Of a stretch of 64,000 nucleotides of DNA, positions 2,289 to 48,999 are shown one piece after another. The DNA is taken from assembly GCA_019248265.1 (NCBI GenBank), contig JAEHGX010000003.1, forward strand, positions 32,617 to 96,616, given 5' to 3'. A program made the position numbers and the translations under genes. The notes under the pieces are model-generated. The model did not search any database, was not told the origin of the DNA, and worked only from the letters and a program-made list of their open reading frames with translations. Positions within the stretch are counted from its first letter, which is position 1. The number at the start of each line of letters is the position of its first letter. The DNA is from Candidatus Falkowbacteria bacterium S5_I03 (lineage in GTDB: Bacteria; Patescibacteriota; Patescibacteriia; Patescibacteriales; UBA12465).

Positions 2289-5200
2289 TTATTTAACCAA
2301 CTTTTCATATGCATACTCTGCATAATCTAATCCAGCTGGATAAGCAGCTTTAGTTAATACATCCCAAGGATTATATACTATATTTCCAAGATTCTTTGTA
2401 AACACAGACTGGTCATGAACATCATCTATATCCATAATAGTAGCTTGTCCTAATACAGCTAGCAAGAAGCTTATCGGATGATCAATAACTCCTTTTCTAA
2501 TAACTCTTTGAATCCTAACGAAATACTTCGTAAACATTACTAGCCCAATATCATTCATATACTGTAATAATTTACTATCTGGTGTTCCATACACAATAAA
2601 AGCATCTTTTACTGTATTTAAAGCCACAAACTCTTTTCTATCATAATTGTATTTTTTCTCAATCAGCTCAAACAGTTCACTATATTTAAAATCTTTATCA
2701 TTACCTAATTTTTCACTATTTTCATCAAACAAATCTTTAATAGTTACTCCAATATCTAATAATTCTTTTTCATTTTTAAACTTTCTAATCGAATGCAACT
2801 CTGGAAACTCAACAGGACTCAATCCAAGCTTTCTAATTAATTGATTCATTCTTTTAAAATCTTTTTCAGTAGGTTTATTTTGCTCAGCTCTTTTCTTTAA
2901 TGATTCATGTAACGCATATCTAGCAACGAAATCTGAATACTGTGTAGCAGTTGTCATCATTTTAAAGAATCCAGTTCTCTCAGTTACAAACAGGTATTGT
3001 AATCCATTTTTAATAAACTCAGGTTTACCATCAGTTACTTTATCAAACATCTTAGTTATTTTACTATTAGTTTTTAAATCTCCAAGCGTAGCATCTTCTA
3101 CAATTGCTTGATACATCCCAGCATCCATTAAATCTCTAACTGGATTATCTTTTAGATTATTTTCTAATATGTTTATTTTTTCTATATCTAATTTAGTAAT
3201 ATTTCCAGCATCTCTAGCAATCTTTAATTTCTCAAGCTCAGTTTCATCAGCAAGGTACTTTTTAAGCGCTCTGAAGCCATCAACCTGAAGATTCATAACA
3301 TCTATAGGGTTCATTCCCATTTGCACACTAAGCGCCAGATTAGAAACGATATTGCCTATCAATACCTGAGGTGTTTTTATAATAATATTTACTTTTGATA
3401 TTTTTACTACTTCTTTCCACATAATCTCAATTAACCTTATGAAATGTTTTGCAACAGCTGGTAAACTTCTGATAAGCACAGCATCAGCAATACTTGCATC
3501 TCTAAACCCTAAGTAGTTAAACATCATATCTCTTCTTAATGGAATACCTTTTTGAATGTCATCTAACCACTTAGTGTTCTTAGTTGAGTTATTTTTAGCA
3601 TCTGGAATAACAACAAACTTACCTTTTTTATCTTCTCTAACATTTACGCCTCTTTTTCTAGCTTCTTTAAGCACATTAATTTTAATTTCTGTTTTAATTC
3701 TATTTTTAACAGCTGAAGGCAATACATTCCATGATTGTTGGATATCTGGCTCTATACTATTCGGAGTTAAGAATATATATTCTTTTTGATTTAAATCTCC
3801 ATATTTCATAAAGTTTTTATTGTTTTTTCTAGCATCATCAAACAATACATCCAATACTTTATTGTTAAACTCTTTAGTCTGAACCTTATCTTTAATACTA
3901 GCTTCCATTCTGCCTAGTACATACGGCGCTCTAATATCCTGTTTAAGCAACGATCTCTTTCTAGCCTTACTCATTATATACCTATAATTTATAGCAACAC
4001 CTGCTTCATTATATACAGGTAGCAATGGATTATCATCATTCATATCAATAACTGCAGCTTTCATCTGATTTTCTATAATCTTATATGCTTTATCATTTAA
4101 TTTTCTTATATCTAACTCAGCTAATCTTTTTGCTTGTTTTTCATTACCTTTATATCTAACATCTAATATAGTAGTTCCTCTTCTACCCATATCTGTATAT
4201 CTTATACTTGTTCTGTTCATGCTTTGAACCAGGTGATCTTCATTTACATATAATGCCATCTCTTCTTTTGATGTATCGCCTTTATTTTTCTTTAATTTCT
4301 CTACAAGCTTAAATCCTAGTTTTTCTTTTTCTTTTTGCTCACTAACTGGCGCTACTTCTACTGTAACATCAGCATCGAATATCTCTTTTGTATATCCTTT
4401 TATTTCATTAAATGATGTATCTATTTCATTTCCATCTGTATCTTTTTTTGTAAACAATTCTTTTCTTGATTTCTCAACAAAGCTTCTATGTATAGCAGCT
4501 ACATTTCTAACCCCAACTGGATCTTTTTCAATCAATCCTCTTAATACTTCAATCTGACTAAAATCTGTATATTTTAAAGCTTCTAGTGTTGCTAGCTTGT
4601 CGATTCTCTTAATTGATGCTTTTGAAGCTTCTATAGGATTTGGAGCATTAAACATATTACCTATATTTCTTGCATTCAACAACTGAGCTTCATTTGTAGC
4701 CATATGCGTAGCCATATAAAACCCTAATCCTGCAGCTTGTGATACATAATAGTTTCCTATGGCTTTATCTTCATTCTTCCATATCTCTAATCTGGCGCTT
4801 TCAATCTCAGCCTGAATAGCTTCTTGACTAGCTAATAGTTTTTTCATTCTATCAAGACCAAAATCTTCATATATAGAACTTAAATCTGTATCCAAAAGCG
4901 CCAGTGTTAATGCTTCTTCTTGTTCAAATGTTAACTTTTTTTCAAACCCATTTACAACCAAACTTCCTATAATCTGAGCCTCATGCTCTCTTGTTCTATC
5001 TATGCTTCCACTTGCTAATGTGAAGTTCTCCAATGTTCTTTCAAGCTCATCTTTATCTCTAAATCCTCTAACTAATGATTGAAAAAAACCTTCAGGCTTT
5101 AATCTTGCAACTTCACTTAATACATTCTCAAAAGCAGGTCTTCTGTCACTGTCATTTAAAAACACATATGCGTTCCTAGCAAACCACTTAGCTCTTGTAA

Positions 5201-6629
5201 ACTTACTTGCACCCTCTGGAGGTCTTCCAATCTCATCTTTTAATGATGTGTCAAATCTTTTTATGAATCTACTTATACTATCGTTCAGGTATGTTATTCC
5301 ATCTCCTGTTAATCTCATTAGGTTTTTTCTCTTTTGGATAATAGCTGCATTATTTGCTTTACCTAGCTCTAGCGCCAGTTTTAGAAGTATCTGGTCAGCT
5401 CTAACATCTTTATCTTCTTTTCTAGCAAACTGCATCACATAGTTAAACAATTTCTCAACTATTGCAATCAATCCATTGAAAAATCCTTTTTCTTTAATCT
5501 CTGGATCTTTATATACTTTTATTTCACTCAATCTTTTTATCATAGCTTCATTTGTTAATCCTAAAGCTATGAACTCACTTAATCCTACTTCTGGATCACT
5601 TATGTAATCAAATCTTTCTTTTGCTAATCTATACTCTTCTTTTGTTCCATATTTGCTTTTAACATCCAAGAAATCTTCAACTTTTAATTCTTTTAATACA
5701 TCTTCTCTAACTTTTTGAAGCCTTAATATTGTTCTTGCTACATCTCCACCTTTATTCTGCTTTGCATACTCTGTTGCCGCATGTATAATCTCATGCACAT
5801 ATGCCTCGGCTGCACTCATTGCATTTCTTTCAGGTCTATATTTATTTGAAGCTCCTACATATATTCCTTTGTTGTAACCATCTAATTCTATATATCCACC
5901 GTTACTTTCAGCTTTTTTATTCAGATACACATTCATCTCAGGTATGAAGTCTTTCCCTGCTCCAATAAACATATCTATTACTTTTGATAGATTCTTTTTG
6001 TGTTCAGCGCTAACTTCAACTGGATCATATGCATACAATTCGTCCATGAATTCTTTCATCTTTTCAGGATCTTTAATCAAGTCATCATTTTGTTTTTCAA
6101 AATCTTTTCTATCGTTTTCATATTTGAATCCATTTTCTGAACCTAATCCTCTAAAATCTTTATCTAGTTCTACATAATTATCAACTACTTTATCTATGCC
6201 AATAAGACCATTTATTCTAGCGCCAGTTTCAGATTTTCCATTGTTTAGCACATACACATTCCTAGCTTCACCATCTCTTTTTCTCTTAGCTACAACCTCT
6301 ATATCTCCATTTTTTAAGTACTTAATTGAATCTATAGTCTCAACATACTTTCTTCCACTGTTTTCAACCACAAGCTCATTACCTTCACTAAATAGATACT
6401 TATTCATTGCAAATGTTTTAGCTTCATCATACTTTTCTTTAGCTCTTTCATTTCTATCAGCTACTTCACTTATCTCTGAAGCTATTGACTCATCCAAATC
6501 TTTACTTCGTTCTTCGTTATACCACTGCTTAATCTCAGCCACAGCAGCATCTAACTCTTCACCTTTGTACTTTGCTTCTAAACCTTTTATTATCTCATTT
6601 AGCTCTTCGCTAGGTAGTTTACATGCCAT
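2289..6629 (-). CDS. giant (1,446 aa) putative virion/ejection protein with an HExxH zincin-like motif
   Basis: Long ORF immediately downstream of the vRNAP gene. HEIIH lies at 5781-5795 in the context YVHEIIHAATEYAKQNKG, which is paralogous to two modules in the vRNAP C-terminus. Confidence 0.6.
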   Translation of the reverse strand: MACKLPSEELNEIIKGLEAKYKGEELDAAVAEIKQWYNEERSKDLDESIASEISEVADRNERAKEKYDEAKTFAMNKYLFSEGNELVVENSGRKYVETIDSIKYLKNGDIEVVAKRKRDGEARNVYVLNNGKSETGARINGLIGIDKVVDNYVELDKDFRGLGSENGFKYENDRKDFEKQNDDLIKDPEKMKEFMDELYAYDPVEVSAEHKKNLSKVIDMFIGAGKDFIPEMNVYLNKKAESNGGYIELDGYNKGIYVGASNKYRPERNAMSAAEAYVHEIIHAATEYAKQNKGGDVARTILRLQKVREDVLKELKVEDFLDVKSKYGTKEEYRLAKERFDYISDPEVGLSEFIALGLTNEAMIKRLSEIKVYKDPEIKEKGFFNGLIAIVEKLFNYVMQFARKEDKDVRADQILLKLALELGKANNAAIIQKRKNLMRLTGDGITYLNDSISRFIKRFDTSLKDEIGRPPEGASKFTRAKWFARNAYVFLNDSDRRPAFENVLSEVARLKPEGFFQSLVRGFRDKDELERTLENFTLASGSIDRTREHEAQIIGSLVVNGFEKKLTFEQEEALTLALLDTDLSSIYEDFGLDRMKKLLASQEAIQAEIESARLEIWKNEDKAIGNYYVSQAAGLGFYMATHMATNEAQLLNARNIGNMFNAPNPIEASKASIKRIDKLATLEALKYTDFSQIEVLRGLIEKDPVGVRNVAAIHRSFVEKSRKELFTKKDTDGNEIDTSFNEIKGYTKEIFDADVTVEVAPVSEQKEKEKLGFKLVEKLKKNKGDTSKEEMALYVNEDHLVQSMNRTSIRYTDMGRRGTTILDVRYKGNEKQAKRLAELDIRKLNDKAYKIIENQMKAAVIDMNDDNPLLPVYNEAGVAINYRYIMSKARKRSLLKQDIRAPYVLGRMEASIKDKVQTKEFNNKVLDVLFDDARKNNKNFMKYGDLNQKEYIFLTPNSIEPDIQQSWNVLPSAVKNRIKTEIKINVLKEARKRGVNVREDKKGKFVVIPDAKNNSTKNTKWLDDIQKGIPLRRDMMFNYLGFRDASIADAVLIRSLPAVAKHFIRLIEIMWKEVVKISKVNIIIKTPQVLIGNIVSNLALSVQMGMNPIDVMNLQVDGFRALKKYLADETELEKLKIARDAGNITKLDIEKINILENNLKDNPVRDLMDAGMYQAIVEDATLGDLKTNSKITKMFDKVTDGKPEFIKNGLQYLFVTERTGFFKMMTTATQYSDFVARYALHESLKKRAEQNKPTEKDFKRMNQLIRKLGLSPVEFPELHSIRKFKNEKELLDIGVTIKDLFDENSEKLGNDKDFKYSELFELIEKKYNYDRKEFVALNTVKDAFIVYGTPDSKLLQYMNDIGLVMFTKYFVRIQRVIRKGVIDHPISFLLAVLGQATIMDIDDVHDQSVFTKNLGNIVYNPWDVLTKAAYPAGLDYAEYAYEKLVK

Positions 6630-6657: not shown

Positions 6658-9600
6658 CTATCGACACTCTTCTTTATTTTTTAACATTATATCTTTTGCT
6701 TGCATAATATCTTCTTCGTTTATTGTTTTATATATTTTTTTATTAAGTTCAACTTCTTTATCTGGCGCTTTGTTAGATATATACTCTTTTCCATCTTTAT
6801 TAGCTTCCACAGCAGTTTTGAAGCTATCAAGCAAGTATTTATGCATATTTAACTTATCTTCTTTTGTAGATAATCCTAGAGCTTCTACAACCATGTCAAT
6901 TATCTTCTCAAACATACTTTTCTCAGCGCCAGTTATTAGATTACCTTCAACATCTATTTTCATTAAATCTTTAATTAGTTCTGGCTTACTTAATGCTTCA
7001 GCTAAGAATTCATCTACATCTTTAGCCCAATATGATTTATTAGTTGTAAACATCTCAGGATTAGCTTCAGCAGCTTGCTTAACCACTTCATATAGTCTAG
7101 TCATCTCTTCGCTATATGTTTTACCTTTTTCACTTCTCATATAGTTATAAACAGCAGCATGAACACTCTCATGTAACTTAGTTGTGAAATCTATATTTCT
7201 TTTATTTACTTCATCTATTATCATGTTTATTTGAGTTGATGCAGCCTTAATATCCAAAGCGCCAGTGTCTTGGTTTACTTGCTCAATTGATAACATTTTC
7301 ATCATCTCTTTATCATTTCTCAATCCATCAAAATCTGCTATCGTAACAACATTATCTTTCCAATCATAATTCCCAGCAATACCTTCACCAGTAAAGAAGT
7401 CATATGCTAATTGTTTACTGTAGTTCATTTCAAACTTAACATTATCTTGAATATACTCTAATAATTTAGCATTTTCTTTTTCAATATTCTCATCTTTTTT
7501 ATATTGTTCTAATACTTGCTGAACACTATTAACTTTTGTATCATTAACAGCATTTTCTTTTGCAACATATCCATTTAACTCTAATACTATCTCTAGCGCA
7601 TCAGTCAATGCACTTTTTGAACCATCATCTTGATCAACAAATCTCAATATTGCTTTAAACAGATTTTTAACATCTTCAAATAAACTTTTATTAGATGATA
7701 CACTTTCAAATCCAGATAAAAACTCTTGAAAAGATGGATTACTTATTGCTTCAGCTACAAATTCATATGCTTCACCTTTTTTATCAGATAATCCATATTG
7801 TTTTCTTTGCTCAACTGTAGAATTTTTATAAACATAATTTCTTAATTCATTAGCTTTTTTATCTAATGCTTTATTTTGTTTCATTGCATAAACAGTTATC
7901 GCATGAGCATATTCATGAAGCATAACTCTTTGTGTATTTTCAATTCCAAAATCTTTAGTTGATGGAAATGTTAATAGTTTTTTACCAGATGTATAAGCAC
8001 TATGCATACCATATCCATCAACTTCTTTATCTTGCTTAAACACAATTGTTATTGGATTGAACTTAATACCATTTTTACCAAACATTTCAAATAATCCATC
8101 TATATATTTAGATTCTTTAGCATCAATATTTTTACTTTTAGTCATATCTGCATATTCAGAAGCCAATTGTTTAAATTCTTCATATGTTTTAATTTCTTTT
8201 TGATATGGACTATTTTTAGATGCAGGATTTTTAAACTGAATTTTTCCATTTTTTAATCCATTTAGCATACTTGTTTCTGATACTATTTCAACAGGCTTAG
8301 TCTCTTTTTTTACAGATTCTTTCTTATCTGGCGCTTTGATAGTTAATTTAGTTCTATCTTCAGGCTCAACAACTTTACCGCCTTTAATTTCATACATACT
8401 TCCATCTAATCCAGCCATATGTCCAATCTTAGCATTAGATCCATATACTAATTTTCTACCGCTTTCAGCTACTTCATTTAACTCTCTCATTTCATCTAAT
8501 ATTGAATCAAATCTCTTAACTGGTTTGTTTTTTCCTGAACGCAAACCTTCAAGCTTATCTAAATCAACTCCAAGCTTTTTGGCATTATCTCTAACCCTTT
8601 CTAATGATTTTAAAATCTCTTTAGCTAAGCTATAATCTTTAGATATTTCATATACATCTTTGTTGTATTTAATAATTTCATCTTGAGCATTATTTATTCC
8701 AGTAAGCTTAGCATCATGCACTCCAAGAACTCCACCTTCTTCTAATGATTTAGTCATAGCTGAACCATCTATATAGTGAATTGGCACAACAGCTCCAGCA
8801 CTTATTGCAGCTTGAAACTCTCTAATCATTGACTGAACTGTTAATGTTTTTTGACCACCAAACTTATCAGGATTTACATGCGTCTGAGTAGGTCCATATC
8901 CACTTTTTGCATTTGTTAATCCAGTTGAGAATATAGCAACAGTTTCACCATCTTCCATATAGTTTTCACCAGCCAATGGAGCCTTAATCATAGGGAATAA
9001 TACTTTTAGTTCATCTAATATTTTATTTTCTTGATCAGCTGTCAATCCTTTTCCACCACTTACTTTTTCAACTCTAGCATCATATGCAACTTTCCAAGCT
9101 TGAAACATTATTTTGAATGAGTTATTGATTCTATTGTTAGCCTCTATAAGCTCTCCAAACTCTGCAGTTAATATCTGTTCAACATTTGATCCATATGTCA
9201 TCTCCACAATCTCTCTAAGTTTACCAGCTATAGCTACTTTACCAGATTTAACTTTCATTTCCTTACCAGTTTTATCTTTAACTGTTACATAATTATTTAT
9301 TTGAATATCTTCAAAAGCTGTATTTTTTAATGTTTCTTTAAATGCTTTAATCTCTTTCTCTTCTAACTCTTTACCATGAATGCTATTTATAAACTTATTA
9401 GCTTTCTTAACCGCTTCAGGAGACGAATCATCAAGCATCATCTTAGGTAATCCAGATATCATTTTATACCCAAGATGTCTTTTAATCGACTTAATAGCAG
9501 CTGCATATCCAAATGTCATAAACGGATCTTTAAACAATGACCTACCTTCGCTTGTAACAATATCTATAATCTCTGTTTTTAATCTATCTTCACCATCTTC

Positions 9601-12600
9601 ATCTTCTTTTGTACTACTATCTGGCGCTTCTGCAACTTCAACTTCTTTTTGATCTTTAATCTTAGGAAGAACTTCCTGTAAAGCTTTCCATCTTTCTTCG
9701 TTTTCTACTTCAACTTCAAAGCCAGTTACATCCATTCCTTGAGCCAATGTTCTATATGAATCTATTAATCTACCTTCTGATATCTCTTGCCCTGAGTTTG
9801 TAATAGCCATATAATTTTCATAATCTTTAATATCTGATGCATATTTTTGTTTATCTTCTTTAGACATTTTAGCTATTTGTTTTTTAGTTAGCTTTCCATC
9901 ATATAAAAACACTCCACCTTTAGATAACCATAATTTCATTTTTTCGAACGACATAATAGGTAATTGCAATAGTTTCAATATGAATCCACTTGTAATAGCA
10001 TCAAACTCTACAGATAATGATACTTCAAATGGTCTTTCACCATTTCCAGCTTTTTTATAAGCTCTAACTGCATTTAATCCTTGAAAGAAATGACCTAAGT
10101 GTTCAATCTCTACTTCATATTTTTTACCATCTTTTTTTATCTCAGCTTTATGCTTTTTATCTGTCAAAGCGCCAGTTAGTGTCTCTTCAGATTGTTCAAG
10201 AACAGCATCTGCAAAGTCATATATCTCTTGAGGTGTTTTCTTGTCTATTCCAAATCCAAACGCTTGAGCTATAGCAGTTTTAAAGTATTCTTGTTGTTTA
10301 TTTTTTTCAGCATCTGGACTATTGAAATCCATAATTTGTCTATGAGCTTTTAATGTAACAAGGAATCTATGTAACTTATCTGTCTGAGGATTTACAGTAA
10401 CTGAATCCATATAGAATCTTCCATTTTTACCAAAGAAATATTCAAAATACATCTCATTAGCTTCAGTAGCATCTTTACCAGCTACTTTATCATGCAATGA
10501 TATCAAATTATCATAACTTTCTTCAATCTCTCTATTTCTAGCTTCTGCACTTTCTCTATCATCGAATGCCATTTTCTCTAAATCATCTTCAGTTTTAAAT
10601 CCCATTATTGATAATGTTTGAGATCTATCTCTTTTCTCAAGCATCAAATCTACTGCTTCACTATTAACTTCATACGCTTCTTGTCTAATTTTATTTAATA
10701 CTTTAAAAGACTCATTAGCAGCTTTATTAACTTTACTATTTTTAACTTTATTATTCTTATCTTCTAATGTTTTAGGTTTTGTGAACATCGGACCTTTTGA
10801 ATTCTTCTCTAGCGCCAGTATTGATTGAACCATATCAACTTTTGCTAGAACTTCAGCTTTTAATACACTCATATCTGTTTTTTCTTTAACACTATATTTT
10901 TTACCAATAGCTGGTTTTTTTAATTGAACCATTGGAATTCTTTTAGATTTGCTGTCTTTATCTGTAGTTAAATCATTGAATTCTTTAGCTGCTTCTGCAT
11001 CTATTTCTTCTTGAGTTTTTGAGTTTTCATCTTCTATAAAATTACCATATTTATCTTTTTTTCTATTATCTATTCCAAGAGCTTTAGTATATGTATCAAT
11101 AGGAATAGTTGATTTGTTTAATGGCTCTATATATTCTTTTGCTTGCATATATAGCAATACCATTTGACCAGCATCTGATAACATCTTTGCATACAGTTCT
11201 GAATCTACACCTTCATATACTACTTTTTCACTACCATCTGCATTTTTACCAACTATCTTACTAGCTGGCGCTAATGATAAATTACTAAATGCAGCTTTAC
11301 CAAGATTATCAGCTATAAGCTTTTTAAATAAACCTTCATGTGCAAACGCTTTTTGAATATCAGGACTAACTTCATGTGGTTGTTTACCAAGCATAGCAGC
11401 AATAGCATCTTTATCATTATAAGCTAACTTAGAACTCATAAATGCATAATACTCATCTCCAGCTAACGCAAGAGCTACAGCTACATTTTCGTTAATTTCA
11501 GCCACACCATTGTCTGTCAACCTAAACAATAAACCTCTAAATAAACTATCTTTTGCTTTAAATTTTCTATTTGCTATATCATCATTAGGATCCGAAAGCA
11601 TCTTTTTGAATATGTCTACTGCATCGTCTTTGTATTTTAATATTTCTTTATTGTTAGTTATTTCACTTATAGGCATTCCTGATAATCTATTTTTTCCAAC
11701 TTTTGATGGTTGAACTATTTCGCTTACTCTAACTCTCTGGTATGCTCCACCATCTACTGAAACGGCATTCATATTTGATGATGTATTGTCTATAATATCT
11801 TTAATATAATCAGTACCAGTTAATTTATCTTGTAATAATTTAATCTCTTCTCTTATCTTGTCTCTATTTACTTTATTGCTTGTAGCTAATCTTTCAAACT
11901 GTGTAAACTTATCTTTCAGTTGAGAACCTGAATATTTCTTTCTAGCTTCATCACTATTTAAATATGCATATGCTCCTTTTTGAACTGCATAATCATATTT
12001 AATTTTATATTTTAATTCTTCAATTTTACTTTCTATAGCTTTTATTGCTTCAGATTTTTCAATTTTTTTACTTTCCAAAGCGCCAGTGTTAGAGTCTATA
12101 TCAAAATCTGAATATGTAATCTCAAAGTTGTCATTGAACTCTTTTATGTCATTCATTGTATCTTTATAGTTTATAGCACCACTTATATCTGTATCTCCAT
12201 AATCTATATCAGCATATGTTATTTCACCATTATCAGCAGGTTCTTTGTATGTTATAGGTTCCTTCTCTGCCGGCGCTTTGTTGATATCCTTAGGTTTCTC
12301 TTTTGGTAACATATCAAAATCAATATCACTTATATTCGAATCACCTATATTTTCATCGGACTTAATTTCTTCATCTGAATATGTTATTTTTTCATCTTTG
12401 TATGTAATATCTTCTAAACTTTTATCTACTGGCGCTTTATAAGTTATATCCTCTGGTGGCTTCTTGTCAACAGGAGGTTTTTTATCTTCTGGTTTTTTAA
12501 CTGTATTATCAATGTCAATATCATCTTTTTTATCAAGACTTGCTAATGTTATTCTATTTTTTTTATCTTGCTTAATTAATGTTTTAATTTCTTCAGGTAA

Positions 12601-15462
12601 ACCTTTAAGTTCATTATCATTAATAGTTTTACCAGTGTAGCTTGGCAACACTTTTTTAATAGCAACACTTGCTTTGTTTATTTCATTTAAAAGATTTTTT
12701 CTTTCATTTATTTTTGTAGATGATGATTCACTTGATCTTTTAAATCCTTCAATCTTTTGAGAAACTTCTTTAGCTGTTAATTCTGCAGCCTTAGCCATAG
12801 CGCCAGCTTCTTTTGCTACAGCACTTCTTATGCCGTATATTCCACCAGTTTTAACATCTTTGCCTAAGTTTTCATAAACATTTCTATAGTTTATTTCAAA
12901 TGTTTTACCTGATGGATATGTAAATTTCTCAGAATCAGCATTTATTCCTTTTATGTTTCCTTTAACTTTGCCGCCATTTAACTTGATATTTTTTCTTACT
13001 TCGGCTTCAACTTTAGCTATTGCTTTATCTAATGCTGATAATTTATTTTGTTGTGATTCTACAAACTTATCCATTTTTGATAGATTTTCATCTATCTTTT
13101 CTAAATTTTCTTCATTTATAGCATCTTCAACATTTTGTCTATATGTTAGATATCCTCTAGCGCCAGTTGATACTTCTTTTGATACATCGTTAATACTTTT
13201 TCTAATTTCTGATACAGCTACATATTCATCTTTGATGTCTTGTAGGGTTTCTTCATCTAATCCAGCATCTTTACCAGCTTTCATATAGTTTTTAACTATT
13301 AATTCGTCATTGAAATCTATCTCTCCAACAGCATTTCCTTCTTCATCTGTAATATCAAGCATTCTCTTGAACTTCTCTTTATTCTGCGGATCTGAAGCCA
13401 AGCTTTGCATTCTTGATGTGTTACCATTTTTAAGAACATCATCTCTTCTAGAAGCCATTAATGCAGTCAAGGCTCTATTGTTTGCTAAGACCTTACCGTA
13501 GATGATATCCTGTGTTTCTTCATCTATATTTTTACTTTTTGATGCATATAGTGATGCTTCTTTGATATCATCAAGCATTGAATCAACTTCTGAATCGGTT
13601 ATGTCTCCAGCAGTTATTCTAGCAGTAATATTATCCATTTTTGTATTATAGTTTGCAACATTTACTTTGGCAGCTTCAGCGTCTTCTTTAGCTACTATTT
13701 CATTTGGATTATCCATAACTATGTCTGATGTCTTATTCTTAATCTCTTTAGCTTTATTAACAGCTGAATCTTTTAATCCACCAAACTTTTCACCAATACT
13801 TTTTGAAGATTCAAATACAGCTTTAGGTAATATCTCAATTGCTGCAGCACCAGTTACGTCTCCAGCTACCCCAGCACCATATGCCTGGAACATCTTTCTA
13901 AATGTTTCATCTTCCAATAATTTTTCTTGCTCATCTGTTCCATATAATGCACCAAATTCTTCAATACCAGTCTGAATTGCTTCTGTAGTACCTCCAATAG
14001 CAACACCTTTTCCGATAGCTTCTCCAGTTTTTTTAGCAATAGTTTTCAATACTGTTTCAGTTGCTTCTTTGTTTTCACTTTTTAAAGCGCCAGATATTAA
14101 GTTATTTATAAACTGTGGTTTTGTAAATATTACTTTATCTGCAACTTTTTCTACTACAGCTGCTCCTAAAGCTAGTGGCATAATAGCCATTCTTTCTGCA
14201 TTTGATATATTTTCAACGCCACCAACAACTTTTGCTCTTTCCTCAAGTATATCATTTTGGAATATTGATGCAACAGCTATATAGCCTTTTTTAGACATTG
14301 ATGCAGCTATATATGCAGCACTTTCAGCTAAAAAAGGTAATCCAGCATTATAAACTCCTTCTATAACAGAAGAAGCCATATCTACAGCATCTCCTGAATC
14401 ATAAGCTTCTCCTAGCCTATTCATAGCTTTTTCTGTAGCTTCACCTTTGTATCCATATGTTTCTTTTTCTTTGTATTTGTCTAATAATTTAAAGTCCATA
14501 TTTTCATCAAACCAAGCTTTACTATTAGGCATATCTTCTTTCATGTATTTTACTGCTTCTTTTTCTGGCATATCTTTTATGCCTTTTGTTAGCTCAAGAG
14601 CTATTCTTCCAGCAGCATCAACAACAGCATCTCCGACATTTGCAGCAAATGATCCACCAGCATATTGTAATGCATCTGTTATTGTATCTTCTCCTGGCAT
14701 CTGTATGTTTTTACCATCAGTTGTTCCGTATTTTGAAGATATATTCTCCAACGCATCTTTAGCAGCAACTTGTTCAAATTTAGGCTTCTCATATCCTATA
14801 GACTCACCAATACCTTCCTTTGTATCTTTATTTCTAACATCTGTTAATGGTCTTCCAAAATGACCAAATTTTCCAGTATTTAATCTTTCAACTTCTATAT
14901 TTAATGGATATTCTTTGCTTCCAAGCTCAAGAGGTGTATTTTCATTTATAAAGTCTAATGGTCCAGGAGTCCATTCAGCTTTTTCACCAGGAATCATATT
15001 ATATAGCGCCATAAGCTTTTGCTCTGTTCCTTTTTGATATATCATATCATCTGTAACTTCATTTGGGTTTAAACCTAATTCTGATGCTAATCTAGCTCTT
15101 TGCATATCAAATTTTTTCTTTCCAGATTCAGTATTTTTATAATTATCACCAGGATGAGGAACTTCATATGCATCAAATCCTTCAATTCTATCTTCTGTTT
15201 CTTTTCCAGTTAAATCATATCTTTTACCAGTTAATTTATCTACTCCACCAAGACCACCAGTTGTTCCAATGAATTGAGGGCTATCTGCATCAGTCATACT
15301 CTCAAGCATAGTTGGAGTCCATACATTTAGGTTGTTTTGTGTTAAGTTTGTTTGTTGATTTTGTTGTTTAGTATCAGAATATCCAGAAAGTCTATCCTGT
15401 TTTTCTATTGTTTTATCACTTAGCGCCAGTATTTTATCTTCAAGTATTCCCATTGGGCACAT
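6658..15462 (-). CDS. N4-like virion-packaged RNA polymerase (vRNAP), 2,934 aa
   Basis: The T7-like motifs occur in the correct order. KNGRFY matches the xxGRxY motif. Motif A is VEFDAITSGF (D1821, 10000-10002). Motif B is RSLFKDPFMTFGYAA, which has exact R-x3-K-x7-Y spacing (K1978, 9529-9531). Motif C is GVLGVHDAKL (D2250, 8713-8715). The true start is probably the second ATG at 15453, because AAGGA lies 8 nt upstream of it. Confidence 0.8.
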   Translation of the reverse strand: MCPMGILEDKILALSDKTIEKQDRLSGYSDTKQQNQQTNLTQNNLNVWTPTMLESMTDADSPQFIGTTGGLGGVDKLTGKRYDLTGKETEDRIEGFDAYEVPHPGDNYKNTESGKKKFDMQRARLASELGLNPNEVTDDMIYQKGTEQKLMALYNMIPGEKAEWTPGPLDFINENTPLELGSKEYPLNIEVERLNTGKFGHFGRPLTDVRNKDTKEGIGESIGYEKPKFEQVAAKDALENISSKYGTTDGKNIQMPGEDTITDALQYAGGSFAANVGDAVVDAAGRIALELTKGIKDMPEKEAVKYMKEDMPNSKAWFDENMDFKLLDKYKEKETYGYKGEATEKAMNRLGEAYDSGDAVDMASSVIEGVYNAGLPFLAESAAYIAASMSKKGYIAVASIFQNDILEERAKVVGGVENISNAERMAIMPLALGAAVVEKVADKVIFTKPQFINNLISGALKSENKEATETVLKTIAKKTGEAIGKGVAIGGTTEAIQTGIEEFGALYGTDEQEKLLEDETFRKMFQAYGAGVAGDVTGAAAIEILPKAVFESSKSIGEKFGGLKDSAVNKAKEIKNKTSDIVMDNPNEIVAKEDAEAAKVNVANYNTKMDNITARITAGDITDSEVDSMLDDIKEASLYASKSKNIDEETQDIIYGKVLANNRALTALMASRRDDVLKNGNTSRMQSLASDPQNKEKFKRMLDITDEEGNAVGEIDFNDELIVKNYMKAGKDAGLDEETLQDIKDEYVAVSEIRKSINDVSKEVSTGARGYLTYRQNVEDAINEENLEKIDENLSKMDKFVESQQNKLSALDKAIAKVEAEVRKNIKLNGGKVKGNIKGINADSEKFTYPSGKTFEINYRNVYENLGKDVKTGGIYGIRSAVAKEAGAMAKAAELTAKEVSQKIEGFKRSSESSSTKINERKNLLNEINKASVAIKKVLPSYTGKTINDNELKGLPEEIKTLIKQDKKNRITLASLDKKDDIDIDNTVKKPEDKKPPVDKKPPEDITYKAPVDKSLEDITYKDEKITYSDEEIKSDENIGDSNISDIDFDMLPKEKPKDINKAPAEKEPITYKEPADNGEITYADIDYGDTDISGAINYKDTMNDIKEFNDNFEITYSDFDIDSNTGALESKKIEKSEAIKAIESKIEELKYKIKYDYAVQKGAYAYLNSDEARKKYSGSQLKDKFTQFERLATSNKVNRDKIREEIKLLQDKLTGTDYIKDIIDNTSSNMNAVSVDGGAYQRVRVSEIVQPSKVGKNRLSGMPISEITNNKEILKYKDDAVDIFKKMLSDPNDDIANRKFKAKDSLFRGLLFRLTDNGVAEINENVAVALALAGDEYYAFMSSKLAYNDKDAIAAMLGKQPHEVSPDIQKAFAHEGLFKKLIADNLGKAAFSNLSLAPASKIVGKNADGSEKVVYEGVDSELYAKMLSDAGQMVLLYMQAKEYIEPLNKSTIPIDTYTKALGIDNRKKDKYGNFIEDENSKTQEEIDAEAAKEFNDLTTDKDSKSKRIPMVQLKKPAIGKKYSVKEKTDMSVLKAEVLAKVDMVQSILALEKNSKGPMFTKPKTLEDKNNKVKNSKVNKAANESFKVLNKIRQEAYEVNSEAVDLMLEKRDRSQTLSIMGFKTEDDLEKMAFDDRESAEARNREIEESYDNLISLHDKVAGKDATEANEMYFEYFFGKNGRFYMDSVTVNPQTDKLHRFLVTLKAHRQIMDFNSPDAEKNKQQEYFKTAIAQAFGFGIDKKTPQEIYDFADAVLEQSEETLTGALTDKKHKAEIKKDGKKYEVEIEHLGHFFQGLNAVRAYKKAGNGERPFEVSLSVEFDAITSGFILKLLQLPIMSFEKMKLWLSKGGVFLYDGKLTKKQIAKMSKEDKQKYASDIKDYENYMAITNSGQEISEGRLIDSYRTLAQGMDVTGFEVEVENEERWKALQEVLPKIKDQKEVEVAEAPDSSTKEDEDGEDRLKTEIIDIVTSEGRSLFKDPFMTFGYAAAIKSIKRHLGYKMISGLPKMMLDDSSPEAVKKANKFINSIHGKELEEKEIKAFKETLKNTAFEDIQINNYVTVKDKTGKEMKVKSGKVAIAGKLREIVEMTYGSNVEQILTAEFGELIEANNRINNSFKIMFQAWKVAYDARVEKVSGGKGLTADQENKILDELKVLFPMIKAPLAGENYMEDGETVAIFSTGLTNAKSGYGPTQTHVNPDKFGGQKTLTVQSMIREFQAAISAGAVVPIHYIDGSAMTKSLEEGGVLGVHDAKLTGINNAQDEIIKYNKDVYEISKDYSLAKEILKSLERVRDNAKKLGVDLDKLEGLRSGKNKPVKRFDSILDEMRELNEVAESGRKLVYGSNAKIGHMAGLDGSMYEIKGGKVVEPEDRTKLTIKAPDKKESVKKETKPVEIVSETSMLNGLKNGKIQFKNPASKNSPYQKEIKTYEEFKQLASEYADMTKSKNIDAKESKYIDGLFEMFGKNGIKFNPITIVFKQDKEVDGYGMHSAYTSGKKLLTFPSTKDFGIENTQRVMLHEYAHAITVYAMKQNKALDKKANELRNYVYKNSTVEQRKQYGLSDKKGEAYEFVAEAISNPSFQEFLSGFESVSSNKSLFEDVKNLFKAILRFVDQDDGSKSALTDALEIVLELNGYVAKENAVNDTKVNSVQQVLEQYKKDENIEKENAKLLEYIQDNVKFEMNYSKQLAYDFFTGEGIAGNYDWKDNVVTIADFDGLRNDKEMMKMLSIEQVNQDTGALDIKAASTQINMIIDEVNKRNIDFTTKLHESVHAAVYNYMRSEKGKTYSEEMTRLYEVVKQAAEANPEMFTTNKSYWAKDVDEFLAEALSKPELIKDLMKIDVEGNLITGAEKSMFEKIIDMVVEALGLSTKEDKLNMHKYLLDSFKTAVEANKDGKEYISNKAPDKEVELNKKIYKTINEEDIMQAKDIMLKNKEECR

Positions 15463-44799: not shown

Positions 44800-47700
44800 T
44801 CAATATGAATCATATGCACTATATTCTTCATCACTGTGTCTATTTATCATTCCATATATATCATCTGCTGCAACTTTACCATCTTTAATTTTTGTAGGTA
44901 TATATGACATATTCTTAGCTGGATAAATCACTTCTAATGCATTTATCATTGATAATAAGTCCATACCATCATCATGCTTACAGTTATGGATAACCATATT
45001 ATTTGAAGAAAAGTTATTTGTTCCTTTTACTTCAAAATCATAAACTGGTTCTATTTTTCTCTTTTCTATTTTTATTATTAAACTTGTACTTGCAACTATT
45101 TGAGCAATACTTGAATTTTGTAGTCTTTTCAATAAATTCTTTTCCACATTCTCTGCATGTGCATCTTGCAGTGAGCTTGTTTCTATCAATATCTCCACAT
45201 TCTTTTGAGCAAAACTTTCGTGAAGAGCTTCTAATTGTTTCAAATTCATTGTTGCACGACAAGCACAATCGAAACTCAACTTTACTTCTTCTGTTTTTTT
45301 CAGTATGTATTTTTCCGCACTCTTCTGAACAGCATATTTGATTTGCTGATTTTTGTTCAAATTCAGAATTGCATACAACACATTGCTTTGTAGTAAGTTC
45401 AGAATAGTTCTCATTTTTTTGAAGTTTACTGTGTTTTCCTCTGCATGATTCGCTACAGAATTTTGTTTCATTTTTAGCTTTATCATTGATTTCAAACTTA
45501 CAATTACAGTACGGACAAATCCTATTTTTGTCTCTGTTTTTTCTTTTTTCTTCTCTTTTTGAACTTTCATAATCTCTTCTTTGTTCTCTATTGTGCCAGT
45601 GTTTTTTTCCTCCAACATGCATAAGCTGATGATCTTCAGGCGATAATATTTCAAGATTAGAAGGTTCGTTATTGTCTTTATTTTCATCTTTATGATGAAC
45701 TTCATATCCTTTTTTAATTTCTCCATTTTCTCTTTCATATATTTCACGATGAAGCCATTTTCTTTTTCCATTAATTGATGTTGTTGATTGATAATATCCA
45801 CTTTTTTGTCTTGTCCATTTGTATCCATATTTGATAATTTGCATTCTATATTCCTAATTATTAAGTCAGTAGACGTCAAATCTTTTACCATAACATATCC
45901 TCTCATGGTTAGAACCTTATGCTCAGCAGTAAGGTGCATCTCTCCATCAATTGTTGTTATAGTATAGGTTTGTTCTACTCCTGTAATTATAGGATTACTT
46001 GCCTTAGAGTTTACTGACGTATAGCCATTTTGTGTCAAAACACTATCATTATGTCTTATGTCGCTCATCATTATTTTTCCATTTGGAGTATCAACAAGCG
46101 TGTCTCCACTAACACAGTTGAATCTTGTATAGCTTGTATATCTAATTTCATCCATTAATTCAACCATATCAGGACTATGTCTCAATTCTTCAGGGAAGAA
46201 TATTTTTCTATTCTGAAACATTGGTAACATCATTCTCATTCTCCAATGTTTGCTTCCACCTTCAAGTCTTGATAATATTCCCTCAGCGCCAGGTTGAGAG
46301 CCTCTTTGTCTAGCAATAGTGAAATAATTCATTCTTTGTCTCATTCTATCTTTTAAGGCATGTATATGTGGTCTCTGATTACCATCAACCTCTACACCAA
46401 CTTCAAATGTTTTATTCTCTGGAGTGTATGTGTCTACAAACCTAAACACTTCATTGTACTGTTGCTCTGTTTCTTGCCTTCGAAGACATAAATCTAACAT
46501 AAACCAGTCCTGATTATGATTTACAGCCCACACAGCTATACCACTTAAATCTGAACCTTTATTACCAGTTGTTGTAAAGTCTGTAGTCATATATAAATTA
46601 TATGCATATAAGTTTTTTAATATATCTGTACGCTTATACCATTGGCTTTCAAGCAATTTATCAGGAATCAATTTATCTTCCTCTGAGCTAATTCTAAGCA
46701 TTAACTCTTGCATGAACTCTCTTAGCGTATCTCCATAATAAGCATCTTCATATTTCTCCATAATTGCTTCAAAAGGCTTCATAGCTTCCCATGAACCACG
46801 GTATTCACTCTTAGGCATGTCTAAATATATCTTTTCACATACTGGTAAGCAAACAGGTGTCCAAACTCCACCCTCAAGCGCAGCATAAACTGGATCTTTT
46901 TTATTAAATGGCGTATTAACAATTATAATTTTACCTTTTTTACCTAGTGCATTCTCTGCATCTGAGTAAATCATAGACTTTAACTTAGCCATAATAATAG
47001 CTGAACCAGCATCTGCTTCGTTCTTTATAATATCATCGAAAGTAAAGCAGTTTTTAGACCTACCAAATGCCGTAATATAGGTACTTTTTGGCTCATTTCC
47101 TCTTGTTCTATCTTTGATTGTTATTGGCACAACTTTTAAATCTTTAACTTCATTTGATTCTTTAAACTGTCTCCACAACATTCCATCTTTTATATGTACT
47201 TGTTTAAAGTGTACTTTCTTGCTAGCCGATACATCTATTCCTAAAACTTCTTTTACATTCTCTACTAATCTTAATTCCCATTGATGATTTATATCGTGTT
47301 CTCTTCCAGTTGATGTGAACACTTGCTTTCCAGCTTTTTTAGTATTTCTAATATATGTTGGTAACCCAAGCCTGCTACATATAACTTGCAATTGCTTTAA
47401 AACATTTAGATTTACACTGTTTATTCTAACCTGTTGAGAAGTTTTTTTGTTATCTATGTATCCATCTGCTGCTATATACCCAAGCAATATTTGCTTTTGT
47501 TTTTCAAAATCTAACTTTAATATCCAATCTGGCATATTCTTAATACTATTTCCATTTTTGTGTGATGCTAACCATCTTGCTATTGCTGAATGATTTGCTA
47601 TGTATAAATCACATCCAGCTCCTTTTACAGTACTTACTCCTTTATTGTACTTACTAAAGAACTCTTTTATTTTTTCTGCTATTTTTGGCTGAGTATGTGC

Positions 47701-48999
47701 AACACTCCATCCAAAACTATTATATTTGTATATTCCTTCTTTATGTTTGTTTTTACCATGAATTTGACCATCCCCAAGCCATAATCCATATAACCACCAC
47801 CATTCATTATCATTGAAATATTCTGGAACTTTATATTCAGGAACATATTCTGTATTTACTATCGAACCATTTTCTCTTCTTTCTGTTATATTGCTAATAA
47901 GATGCTCTATTGCTTTGACATCTTCAACTCTATAATCTATAGGACTTCCTAGCCAATGTCTTCTTGTTATGTTTTTAGCTTCGCACCATTCTGGCGCTTC
48001 TTCAATATAATTTTTAACTAATCTCTTTTCAGATTTACTCCATATCTGATCATTTGTACATTTTTTTGTCCAATATTTATGATCTTTTGTAACTCTTTCT
48101 GATTCAGTTAATCCAAATAATTTTATTTCTAATCCATCTTCTATATGTACACCATGATTAAACGGATATTCTTCAACTCTCATTATTCCTAAATCTGTTT
48201 CAATTATTGTTCCAACTTCATGACATTGAGGTCTCTCAGTTTTATACCTAATACCCCTTACTGACCCACCAGCTGCTCCTTTAACCTTAAACATGAAGCA
48301 TCTTTTCTTAATAGGTAATGGATTTTTTGGATCATCTTTTCTAATGAACTCACATTCTTCATCAGTAAACCTCATTTTCTCGAAATAGTCTTTGCAGAAC
48401 AAACTATCTTCGCATATATCTCTAATCGTATTTGCTTGTACTTTAGCTCCAGCTTGTTGTGAATCTCCAAATGAAACCCAGAACATTACATCACCAAAAT
48501 TTGGCATCTTACCAGTTATAGCTGTAACAATTGGCATAAATGCAGTAATTATTGTAGATTTTGCAGAAAAACGACTAGCGATAATAGCTATTTTTTTGCT
48601 ATTTAATCTAATTTTTTCGTTAATTTCTTGGCTATATGGAAAATTTTCTCTCTTGATGTTTCCATAAACAAGGTCAACAAGGAAGTAATGCATTAATGCA
48701 TTATCTGTCTCAAAATCTTCTCCATAAACAAGCCTCATAATATTGAAAAACTCTATTGCATCTCTACTTGGTGTGTATCCATTAAATGTTAAATCTATAC
48801 AATCTAATGCTTTATCAACATTAAACTCATATCGTTCATGTTTTTTAGGAATTATCTCTTTTGGAGCTTCTTCTATTCCTTCCTCTACAGCTTTTTCATA
48901 AGCTTTCCAGTTTTCATAGGCAATACTATCGTCACCTTCAATCTCTGGACTCACATTTGGATTAATTATCTCTATTTCTGGCGCTTTGCTAGTTTCCAT
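44800..48999 (-). CDS. terL: terminase large subunit precursor interrupted by two inteins (1,399 aa; about 629 aa after splicing)
   Basis: A Walker-A-like segment IIASRFSAKST lies at aa 141-149. After removal of intein 1 the junction reads RGIRYKTERPQ-CFTFDDI (Walker B-like hhhhDD). After removal of intein 2 it reads TRFN-CKHDDGMD (nuclease acidic motif). Confidence 0.75.
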   Translation of the reverse strand: METSKAPEIEIINPNVSPEIEGDDSIAYENWKAYEKAVEEGIEEAPKEIIPKKHERYEFNVDKALDCIDLTFNGYTPSRDAIEFFNIMRLVYGEDFETDNALMHYFLVDLVYGNIKRENFPYSQEINEKIRLNSKKIAIIASRFSAKSTIITAFMPIVTAITGKMPNFGDVMFWVSFGDSQQAGAKVQANTIRDICEDSLFCKDYFEKMRFTDEECEFIRKDDPKNPLPIKKRCFMFKVKGAAGGSVRGIRYKTERPQCHEVGTIIETDLGIMRVEEYPFNHGVHIEDGLEIKLFGLTESERVTKDHKYWTKKCTNDQIWSKSEKRLVKNYIEEAPEWCEAKNITRRHWLGSPIDYRVEDVKAIEHLISNITERRENGSIVNTEYVPEYKVPEYFNDNEWWWLYGLWLGDGQIHGKNKHKEGIYKYNSFGWSVAHTQPKIAEKIKEFFSKYNKGVSTVKGAGCDLYIANHSAIARWLASHKNGNSIKNMPDWILKLDFEKQKQILLGYIAADGYIDNKKTSQQVRINSVNLNVLKQLQVICSRLGLPTYIRNTKKAGKQVFTSTGREHDINHQWELRLVENVKEVLGIDVSASKKVHFKQVHIKDGMLWRQFKESNEVKDLKVVPITIKDRTRGNEPKSTYITAFGRSKNCFTFDDIIKNEADAGSAIIMAKLKSMIYSDAENALGKKGKIIIVNTPFNKKDPVYAALEGGVWTPVCLPVCEKIYLDMPKSEYRGSWEAMKPFEAIMEKYEDAYYGDTLREFMQELMLRISSEEDKLIPDKLLESQWYKRTDILKNLYAYNLYMTTDFTTTGNKGSDLSGIAVWAVNHNQDWFMLDLCLRRQETEQQYNEVFRFVDTYTPENKTFEVGVEVDGNQRPHIHALKDRMRQRMNYFTIARQRGSQPGAEGILSRLEGGSKHWRMRMMLPMFQNRKIFFPEELRHSPDMVELMDEIRYTSYTRFNCVSGDTLVDTPNGKIMMSDIRHNDSVLTQNGYTSVNSKASNPIITGVEQTYTITTIDGEMHLTAEHKVLTMRGYVMVKDLTSTDLIIRNIECKLSNMDTNGQDKKVDIINQQHQLMEKENGFIVKYMKEKMEKLKKDMKFIIKMKIKTITNLLILKYYRLKIISLCMLEEKNTGTIENKEEIMKVQKEKKKEKTETKIGFVRTVIVSLKSMIKLKMKQNSVANHAEENTVNFKKMRTILNLLQSNVLYAILNLNKNQQIKYAVQKSAEKYILKKTEEVKLSFDCACRATMNLKQLEALHESFAQKNVEILIETSSLQDAHAENVEKNLLKRLQNSSIAQIVASTSLIIKIEKRKIEPVYDFEVKGTNNFSSNNMVIHNCKHDDGMDLLSMINALEVIYPAKNMSYIPTKIKDGKVAADDIYGMINRHSDEEYSAYDSY
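44983..46116 (-). mobile_element. intein 2 (378 aa), mini-intein splicing blocks flanking an invaded insert
   Basis: It starts at Cys962 (CVSGDTLVDTPNG) and has block B TAEH. Blocks F/G read VYDFEVKGTNNFSSNNMVIHN, followed by the +1 Cys1340. Confidence 0.75.
45038..45844 (-). CDS. HNH endonuclease with four CxxC...C..C zinc-ribbon repeats, nested in intein 2 in a different reading frame
   Basis: The HNH core is YEVHHKDENKDNNEPSNLEILSPEDHQLMH. The repeats are CPYCNCKFE..FCSESC, CVVCNSEFE..CCSEEC, CLSCNNEFE..FCSKEC and CRECGKEFIE..YCSNSC. The frame offset from terL is 2 nt, since (48999-45844) mod 3 = 2. Confidence 0.7.
   Translation of the reverse strand: MQIIKYGYKWTRQKSGYYQSTTSINGKRKWLHREIYERENGEIKKGYEVHHKDENKDNNEPSNLEILSPEDHQLMHVGGKKHWHNREQRRDYESSKREEKRKNRDKNRICPYCNCKFEINDKAKNETKFCSESCRGKHSKLQKNENYSELTTKQCVVCNSEFEQKSANQICCSEECGKIHTEKNRRSKVEFRLCLSCNNEFETIRSSSRKFCSKECGDIDRNKLTARCTCRECGKEFIEKTTKFKYCSNSCKYKFNNKNRKEKNRTSL
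47050..48225 (-). mobile_element. intein 1 (392 aa) with a LAGLIDADG homing endonuclease
   Basis: It starts with Cys259 (CHEVGT) and has block B TKDH. LAGLIDADG motifs are LYGLWLGDG and LLGYIAADGY. It ends ...GRSKN followed by the +1 Cys651. The penultimate His is absent. Confidence 0.7.

Follow-up and report, generated by a model that had tools for sequence, protein, structure and literature searches.

An N4-like phage terminase intein with an HNH endonuclease gene in a shifted reading frame

Introduction

How can 807 nucleotides (nt) encode an HNH endonuclease in one frame and, in a second frame of the same strand, stay open as the middle of an intein? The question is raised by the gene for the large terminase subunit (terL) in a 64,000-nt stretch of contig JAEHGX010000003.1 (positions 32,617 to 96,616 of the forward strand; assembly GCA_019248265.1, deposited as Candidatus Falkowbacteria bacterium S5_I03), the whole of which is called the window below. 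The source of this stretch is an N4-like (Schitoviridae-type) phage with a guanine-plus-cytosine (GC) content of about 31%. Its terL gene holds two inteins, and the second (intein 2) is our subject. A preliminary description of the DNA had proposed that the segment is dual coding, and had itself named base composition and compensating sequencing errors as ways in which such a layout might be only apparent. Here, we find that the terL frame is kept stop-free by codon choice, and that the locus is probably a class 1 intein with a separately translated homing endonuclease gene of the HNH_3 family, similar to I-HmuI, lying in the +2 frame of the same strand between splicing blocks B and F, where intein endonucleases usually sit.

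Results

A complete HNH gene in the +2 frame

The HNH open reading frame (ORF) begins 3155 nt into terL and thus lies in frame +2 (Table 1), in agreement with the 2-nt shift given in the preliminary description. Its product matches Pfam HNH_3 at amino acids (aa) 29-73 (E=4.3e-14; 52.3 bits against a curated cutoff of 24.8), and alignments A1 and A3 show no variation at residues H50, H51, D53, N58, N59, N63, and H72. The four CxxC...CxxxC zinc ribbons that had been described together with the nuclease were also recovered, and presumably form a DNA-binding array. AlphaFold2 modeled the protein with a mean predicted local distance difference test score (pLDDT) of 80.7, as an N-terminal nuclease domain followed by four hairpin-helix modules, one per zinc ribbon. 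The top Foldseek match of this model is I-HmuI (1u3e_M; probability 1.00, E=0.012), and 1u3e is also the best profile match among solved structures (E=2.7e-4); both matches cover the catalytic core only, whereas the zinc-ribbon part gave weak fold matches to zinc-finger arrays. Kinship with endonuclease VII, which would have linked the locus to the actinophage inteins discussed below, was sought as well and was not found: at E<=5, neither the window HNH nor three of its relatives matched Endonuclease_7 (IPR004211), and HNH_3 alone was found.

The HNH gene has its own ATG, which is preceded by a Shine-Dalgarno-like motif; most related loci carry GGAG, GAGG, or AGGA at a similar distance upstream of the HNH ATG. 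The start codon and the final codon of the N-terminal splicing part (IntN) overlap as A-TGC, an overlap that is common to the closest homologues (L098, L002, L003, L004, L009, L089, and L090; L numbers denote the loci compared), and in more distant relatives the ATG is followed by G, A, or T. At the other end, the final 50 nt of the ORF including its stop codon (45038..45087) overlap the C-terminal splicing part (IntC). The 3'-terminal 50 nt and the start codon coincide with real splicing residues and are therefore constrained in both frames. A -1 frameshift that would fuse IntN to the HNH was also considered, and is unnecessary given the conserved ATG and Shine-Dalgarno motif. Scanning for promoters and terminators gave no convincing internal promoter for the HNH gene, with fewer matches than in shuffled sequence, and translation from the terL mRNA is therefore assumed.

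Table 1. Coordinates of the terL gene, its two inteins, and the overlapping HNH gene, numbered along the window (a slash marks a splice junction)
Feature	Coordinates	Strand	Description	Source
terL (large terminase) ORF	44800..48999	-	1399 aa; two inteins; exteins total 629 aa	ORF list
Intein 1	47050..48225	-	392 aa; classical, in-frame LAGLIDADG; boundaries CHEVG...SKN/C	
Intein 2	44983..46116	-	378 aa; CVSGDTLV to MVIHN, then Cys +1 of CKHDDG	
IntN of intein 2	45841..46116	-	92 aa; blocks A and B; last codon TGC = Cys92	
Linker, intein frame	45088..45840	-	~250 codons; K/E/I/N/L-rich; stop-free	
IntC of intein 2	44983..45087	-	TSLIIKIEKRKIEPVYDFEVKGTNNFSSNNMVIHN; blocks F and G	
Intein-free terL junction at intein 2 site			...TACACAAGATTCAAC/TGTAAGCATGATGAT...	
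HNH endonuclease ORF	45038..45844	-	268 aa; frame +2 relative to terL; own ATG; TGA within intein block F	
HNH_3 catalytic core	45626..45760	-	aa 29-73; HHKDENKDNN...NLEILSPEDH	Pfam
Zinc-ribbon repeats, four	45092..45517	-	CxxC-(14-17)-CxxxC	Regular expression
Zinc ribbon	45443..45517	-	aa 110-134	
Zinc ribbon	45317..45382	-	aa 155-176	
Zinc ribbon	45197..45265	-	aa 194-216	
Zinc ribbon	45092..45157	-	aa 230-251	
Shine-Dalgarno-like AGGA	45852..45855	-	8-11 nt upstream of HNH ATG; within intein frame (codons AGG AAT)	

Splicing parts of intein 2 in the terL frame

On both flanks of the HNH gene the splicing blocks are read in the terL frame, as had been reported, and the class 1 signature is complete: C1 in CVSGD, block B (LTAEHKVLT), block F (EPVYDFEV), block G (VIHN), and Cys +1. 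With hidden Markov models (HMMs) derived from relatives, IntN reaches 139 bits and IntC 54 bits; the Pfam family Hint_2 gives 16.8 bits over intein 2. This IntC may resemble the C-halves of split inteins. The linker that joins the two parts in the intein frame has no Pfam domain match, in keeping with its earlier characterization as a low-complexity stretch akin to neither an endonuclease nor a splicing domain. Because terL is essential and the catalytic residues are intact, intein 2 would be expected to undergo protein splicing.

The C-extein motif behind the intein (44965..44982), when compared with L098, L099, L100, and L093, differs among loci (CKHDDG, CKFDDG, CKYDYG, SKCDDG). Related inteins use two sites of the terminase nuclease motif about six residues apart, lying ahead of x-H-D-D in the window and behind H-D-D-A in Clostridium phage phiCDHM19.

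Codon choice keeps the intein frame open

Over the 807 nt, the HNH frame has no internal stop (only its own terminal TGA) and the terL frame has none at all, whereas the third sense frame has 43; the openness of the terL frame noted in the preliminary description is thus real. The antisense frames of the same segment carry 11 to 16 stops, and the + strand ORF at 45003..45341, which had been entered as a caveat, is an ordinary chance antisense ORF. In the rest of terL, stops occur about once every nine codons in both alternative frames. The window yielded no tRNA genes and therefore shows no sign of stop-codon recoding.

The open frame might be a by-product of composition, in that a purine-rich, T-poor HNH gene would open the shifted frame; the sense strand of the gene is indeed 46% A and 23% T, and the preliminary description had both raised this caveat and named synonymous shuffling as the check that could overturn its reading. 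When synonymous codons were permuted within the HNH gene, a mean of 4.7 terL-frame stops arose, and the probability of none, P(0), was 6.5e-4 and 4e-4 in two runs; when they were drawn from the codon usage of the window, the mean was 9.4 with a minimum of 2, and stop-free sequences numbered 0/20000 (P<5e-5). A terL-frame stop can arise solely from an HNH codon NTA or NTG that stands before a purine. Among codons with T in the second position, the third base is T or C in all 21 that stand before a purine (A or G in 0/21), whereas it is A or G in 11 of the 18 before a pyrimidine, and the genome otherwise favors TTA, ATA, and GTA. A natural control is provided by 43 complete HNH_3 homologues near which no intein halves were detected; they average 3.7 stops per 100 codons in the corresponding frame. 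Stop-free among them are only L023, L024, L025, and L037, all of one group; on inspection, the HNH of L024 proved to be nested in an intein, and we infer the same for the other three. Two GC-richer or shorter relatives, L060 (P=0.11) and Tetrasphaera phage TJE1 (P=0.22), in which the shuffles are not significant, speak for composition. Against the 43 stops of the third sense frame, the shuffles of the window gene, and the stop-laden free-standing homologues, we give this explanation practically no weight. Chance is excluded, and the terL frame is kept stop-free by codon choice.

The two frames evolve differently. By the method of Nei and Gojobori, omega is 0.28 to 0.31 in the HNH frame and 0.47 to 0.83 in that of the intein. 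Where the window differs from its close relatives, the differing base is most often the third of an HNH codon (23-25 differences, against 13-16 in the first position and 7-11 in the second). The HNH frame is under stronger purifying selection than the intein frame that overlaps it. Together with the avoidance of stops by codon choice, these values bear out the proposal that the segment is dual coding.

Recurrence of the contiguous layout

We scanned loci from metagenome and viral collections and GenBank phages with HMMs of both splicing parts and of the HNH. The comparison with related terminase inteins, which had been suggested beforehand, showed that the layout recurs: IntN, HNH in frame +2, and IntC are contiguous with 0 stops in the intein frame and 9 to 44 in the third frame. 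This holds for the contigs L003, L007, L009, L090 (GC 56-62%), L043, L060, L065/66, L075, L088, L092, L098, L099, and L100, and for three cultured phages, Clostridium phage phiCDHM19, Tetrasphaera phage TJE1, and Acinetobacter phage Highwayman. In the GenBank records of the latter three, the annotated terL spans an HNH gene that is not annotated. Synonymous permutation across loci gave P(0)<=0.03 in 14 of 18 tested; Highwayman has P(0)=0.012, obtained from an ORF cut at an internal ATG, and the result was not significant for L060 and L061 (0.11) or for TJE1. Lineages with stop avoidance span 30% to 62% GC.

These relatives also bear on the possibility that the shift is an artefact of sequencing or assembly, with the HNH truly in frame and two compensating indels faking the offset. 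In-frame HNH inteins do exist (cited in the preprint of Gosselin et al.). However, an in-frame HNH gives no reason why the other frame should be open for 268 codons, with a perfect pattern of codon choice along all 807 nt, and the HNH has its own ATG, Shine-Dalgarno motif, and stop. The same frames, and no indels, are seen in L001, L005, L006, L008, L098, and L100, which come from other samples and are about 94% identical, and the layout is shared by about 20 independent contigs and by the genomes of cultured phages in GenBank. We regard an artefact, the other error foreseen in the preliminary description, as vanishingly improbable.

Two of the loci show further peculiarities. In the human gut contig OQWD01000073.1 (L024), terL (3191..6628) contains two noncanonical inteins: the first has a stop-free linker under an antisense ORF of 244 aa with NUMOD4 and HNH_3 (4109..4843, minus strand), and the second carries its HNH in the +2 frame (5983..6519). 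We found no earlier description of an intein with an HNH ORF on its antisense strand. L001 is an 859-nt contig with 1.35x coverage, in which an in-frame TAG is translated as Gln in the database protein P0001 and an intein-frame TGA is formed by ATG-A at the HNH start; the TAG and TGA could be sequencing errors or stop-codon recoding.

Fractured relatives and the split alternative

Relatives with a broken intein frame exist alongside the contiguous ones. In L002, L004, L089 (Vibrio phage 1.238.A), and L010, the intein frame is interrupted by 9 to 20 stops, and in L014, L026, L027, L038, L055, and Lactobacillus phage CL2, the N and C halves lie in different frames. The window itself, with 0 stops between IntN and IntC, falls outside the fractured genes. 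In Vibrio phage 1.238.A, the IntC ORF has an ATG that is preceded by GGAGGA and is located within the 3' end of the HNH gene, an overlap of the kind known from the fractured genes discussed below; this phage is cultured, and the split form is therefore viable. Its genome record (L094, NC_055735) leaves the HNH at 3501..4211 unannotated between the N-terminal part of terL and a "hint domain protein," and in Lactobacillus phage CL2 (L097), IntC and the C-terminal fragment of terL (~2562..2760) are unannotated. L005 (817..819) and L006 (865..867), which come from different samples, have an intein-frame TAA within IntC (IIKV*KRKIEP, with the asterisk marking the stop), at which the sister contigs L100, L008, and L098 have GAA.

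Given these relatives, intein 2 might be a split intein even in the window, with terL seldom or never completed across the linker, the halves joined by trans-splicing, and the open frame a recent relic; the fractured loci and the single intein-frame stop in L005 and L006 favor such a view. In the window, however, no stop follows IntN, and no start codon or Shine-Dalgarno-like motif was noted ahead of IntC on reading the sequence, although no systematic search for an IntC start was made. Moreover, strong stop avoidance has been kept independently in many lineages across the whole GC range given above, which demands ongoing selection for read-through. A split intein at this locus therefore seems improbable to us.

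The distribution of the two forms was examined in a neighbor-joining tree of HNH proteins, a rough distance tree of 217 columns. Split forms fall into two separate groups and come together in 0 of 200 replicates: one is a clade with 100% bootstrap support, nested in a 95%-supported clade with the window and other open forms, and the other, with a core support of 82%, lies elsewhere in the tree. The intein-HNH lineage may record repeated switches between contiguous and split states, in which the stop-free form is long-lived and selected and the split form has arisen at least twice; this is a tentative suggestion, somewhat short of probable.

Mobility of the intein-HNH unit and a proposed mechanism

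In comparisons with L005 and L008, nucleotide identity is 92-97% for the splicing parts and the HNH but only 68-69% for the C-extein (183 nt); the downstream gene, judged by eye, shows roughly 40% amino acid identity. Such a step in identity at the intein boundary is what recent horizontal transfer between diverged phages would give. The HNH looks functional because of its HNH_3 match, its confident model, its match to I-HmuI, an omega of about 0.3, the lack of indels, and the Shine-Dalgarno-like motifs.

Rather than a homing enzyme, the HNH could be an accessory nuclease in packaging, like the terminase-adjacent HNH of HK97-like cos phages, or else a decaying, immobile remnant. It lies within terL, and homologues stand beside terminase or portal genes, for example in Pseudomonas phage PAE1 and Lactobacillus phage CL2. 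Nevertheless, an I-HmuI-like HNH_3 family with a long DNA-binding array is of the homing type, and the unit is about 94% identical between phages whose flanks are far more diverged. N4-like phages, furthermore, package genomes with terminal repeats rather than cos ends, and an omega of about 0.3 argues against decay. Both of these nonhoming roles, taken together, are unlikely.

For a class 1 intein with a separately translated +2 endonuclease, the following scheme may be drawn. Ribosomes on terL would traverse the ~250-codon linker, which would be required only to be stop-free and not to hinder folding; IntN and IntC would then associate and excise the 378-aa intein in cis, yielding active terminase. 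On the same late mRNA, ribosomes would also start at the internal AGGA-ATG and produce a 31-kDa nuclease that begins with MQIIKYGYKW. This enzyme, using its zinc-ribbon array for site recognition, would nick or cut intein-free terL in co-infecting phages, and repair would copy the entire intein-HNH unit into the cut allele. Translation of both products, splicing in cis, the target of the nuclease, and homing are predictions from sequence. As to origin, it is plausible that a free-standing endonuclease invaded a mini-intein.

Several observations weigh against this interpretation. Pfam Intein_splicing matches intein 2 with E=5e-6, and its score of 26.5 to 26.8 bits falls short of the gathering score, which is 35.8. 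For the intein frame, AlphaFold2 gave a uniformly poor model from an alignment of four sequences (mean pLDDT of 37, including the splicing parts); this model neither supports a Hint fold nor marks the linker as specifically disordered. The drop in identity beyond the intein could partly reflect a fast-evolving terL C terminus. Finally, the TAA in L005 and L006 may mean that the contiguous frame is dispensable in some lineages, or that these are defective copies or a very recent break.

Host gene and phage setting

The spliced terL extein is about 32% identical to terminases of N4-like (Schitoviridae) phages over 87-93% of its length. A megablast search of terL against the phage collection gave no match, and relatives were reached by protein-level searches. 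The virion RNA polymerase gene is also in the window. This N4-type polymerase (phrog_2206) is apparently divided between two adjacent ORFs on the minus strand, 6658..15462 and 2289..6629 (2934 and 1446 aa, respectively), which are 28 nt apart and match the consecutive profile positions 672-2303 and 2341-3045.

The LAGLIDADG assignment of intein 1 rests on Pfam LAGLIDADG_3 (E=1.5e-11; terL aa 501-559). A single terL gene thus holds a canonical intein (intein 1) and a noncanonical one (intein 2).

Discussion

The terL locus shows that a long frame can be held open by selection with no role but that of a spacer, the working gene lying in another frame. With it, the known range of out-of-frame intein endonucleases comes to include the HNH_3 family, phages both N4-like and other, and many metagenomes. 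Its contribution is the breadth of the family, together with the presence of contiguous and split forms side by side. Such elements are routinely missed or misannotated, as illustrated by the unannotated HNH genes in phiCDHM19, TJE1, Highwayman, and Vibrio phage 1.238.A. If the lineage does switch between states, cultured phages in both states would allow direct experiments on the emergence of split inteins and on endonuclease capture by inteins. Tools in the form of new split inteins and modular zinc-ribbon nucleases may also come from this family.

An out-of-frame endonuclease in an intein is not unprecedented; it is a rare layout that was documented in 2025-2026. As cited in later preprints, intein endonucleases that lie out of frame or on the opposite strand were first proposed by Gorbalenya in 1998, and preprints from the Gogarten laboratory (2025/2026) document out-of-frame intein endonucleases. 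In the literature searched, coverage of which is incomplete, no paper on an out-of-frame HNH inside an intein was found. In a survey of actinophage inteins, an endonuclease VII-like ORF is encoded on the intein strand in "reading frame 3" (+2) and is bounded by the splicing blocks, as is the window HNH; the in-frame stretch lacks a recognizable fold, like the window linker, and the host genes of the noncanonical inteins as a group include the terminase large subunit, as here. The authors of that survey propose that a free-standing endonuclease invaded the intein, and report HNH endonucleases solely in frame. Compared by description, the window differs from the actinophage cases in having HNH_3 with four zinc ribbons and no Endonuclease_7, and in its AT-rich, N4-like host.

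A cyanobacterial dnaX intein with a +2-frame LAGLIDADG ORF (Phillips, DeSimone, and Gogarten, bioRxiv 10.64898/2026.09.14.751524) resembles intein 2 in the +2 ORF inside it, the Shine-Dalgarno motif before the start, the low-confidence model of the in-frame product, and the lower omega in the endonuclease frame. It differs in that its host gene is cellular, its endonuclease is a LAGLIDADG protein, and no split forms are described. In the ShiLan domain (Arsenault et al. 2025, PMC11855218), likewise, an HNH gene hidden in a phage DNA methylase is overprinted out of frame on a stop-free host ORF. The window insert is flanked by splicing blocks, and protein splicing would take it out of the terminase; ShiLan, in contrast, lacks a splicing domain and is retained as a loop of the host protein.

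The nuclease itself is closest in fold and profile to I-HmuI (PDB 1U3E), a nicking HNH homing endonuclease from the group I intron of a Bacillus phage, which gives the best match to the catalytic core. The two differ in that I-HmuI is intron encoded, and their identity is 23%. To our knowledge, I-HmuI has no zinc-ribbon array.

A parallel in gene order is offered by the fractured genes (Dassa et al. 2009, PMC2677866), whose split inteins are parted by a free-standing endonuclease gene. There, as in the window, the N-extein with IntN is followed by the endonuclease and then by IntC with the C-extein, and the 3' end of the endonuclease gene overlaps the start of IntC; a terminase locus is among the cases, and the model put forward is that of a mini-intein invaded by a free-standing endonuclease. 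The contiguous and fractured versions of the present family coexist, and some are found in cultured phages; therefore, this 2009 model for the origin of split and bifunctional inteins has become testable. What sets the window apart from the fractured genes is that its intein frame is uninterrupted and that its endonuclease is an HNH, whereas those of the fractured genes are GIY-YIG or Vsr-like.

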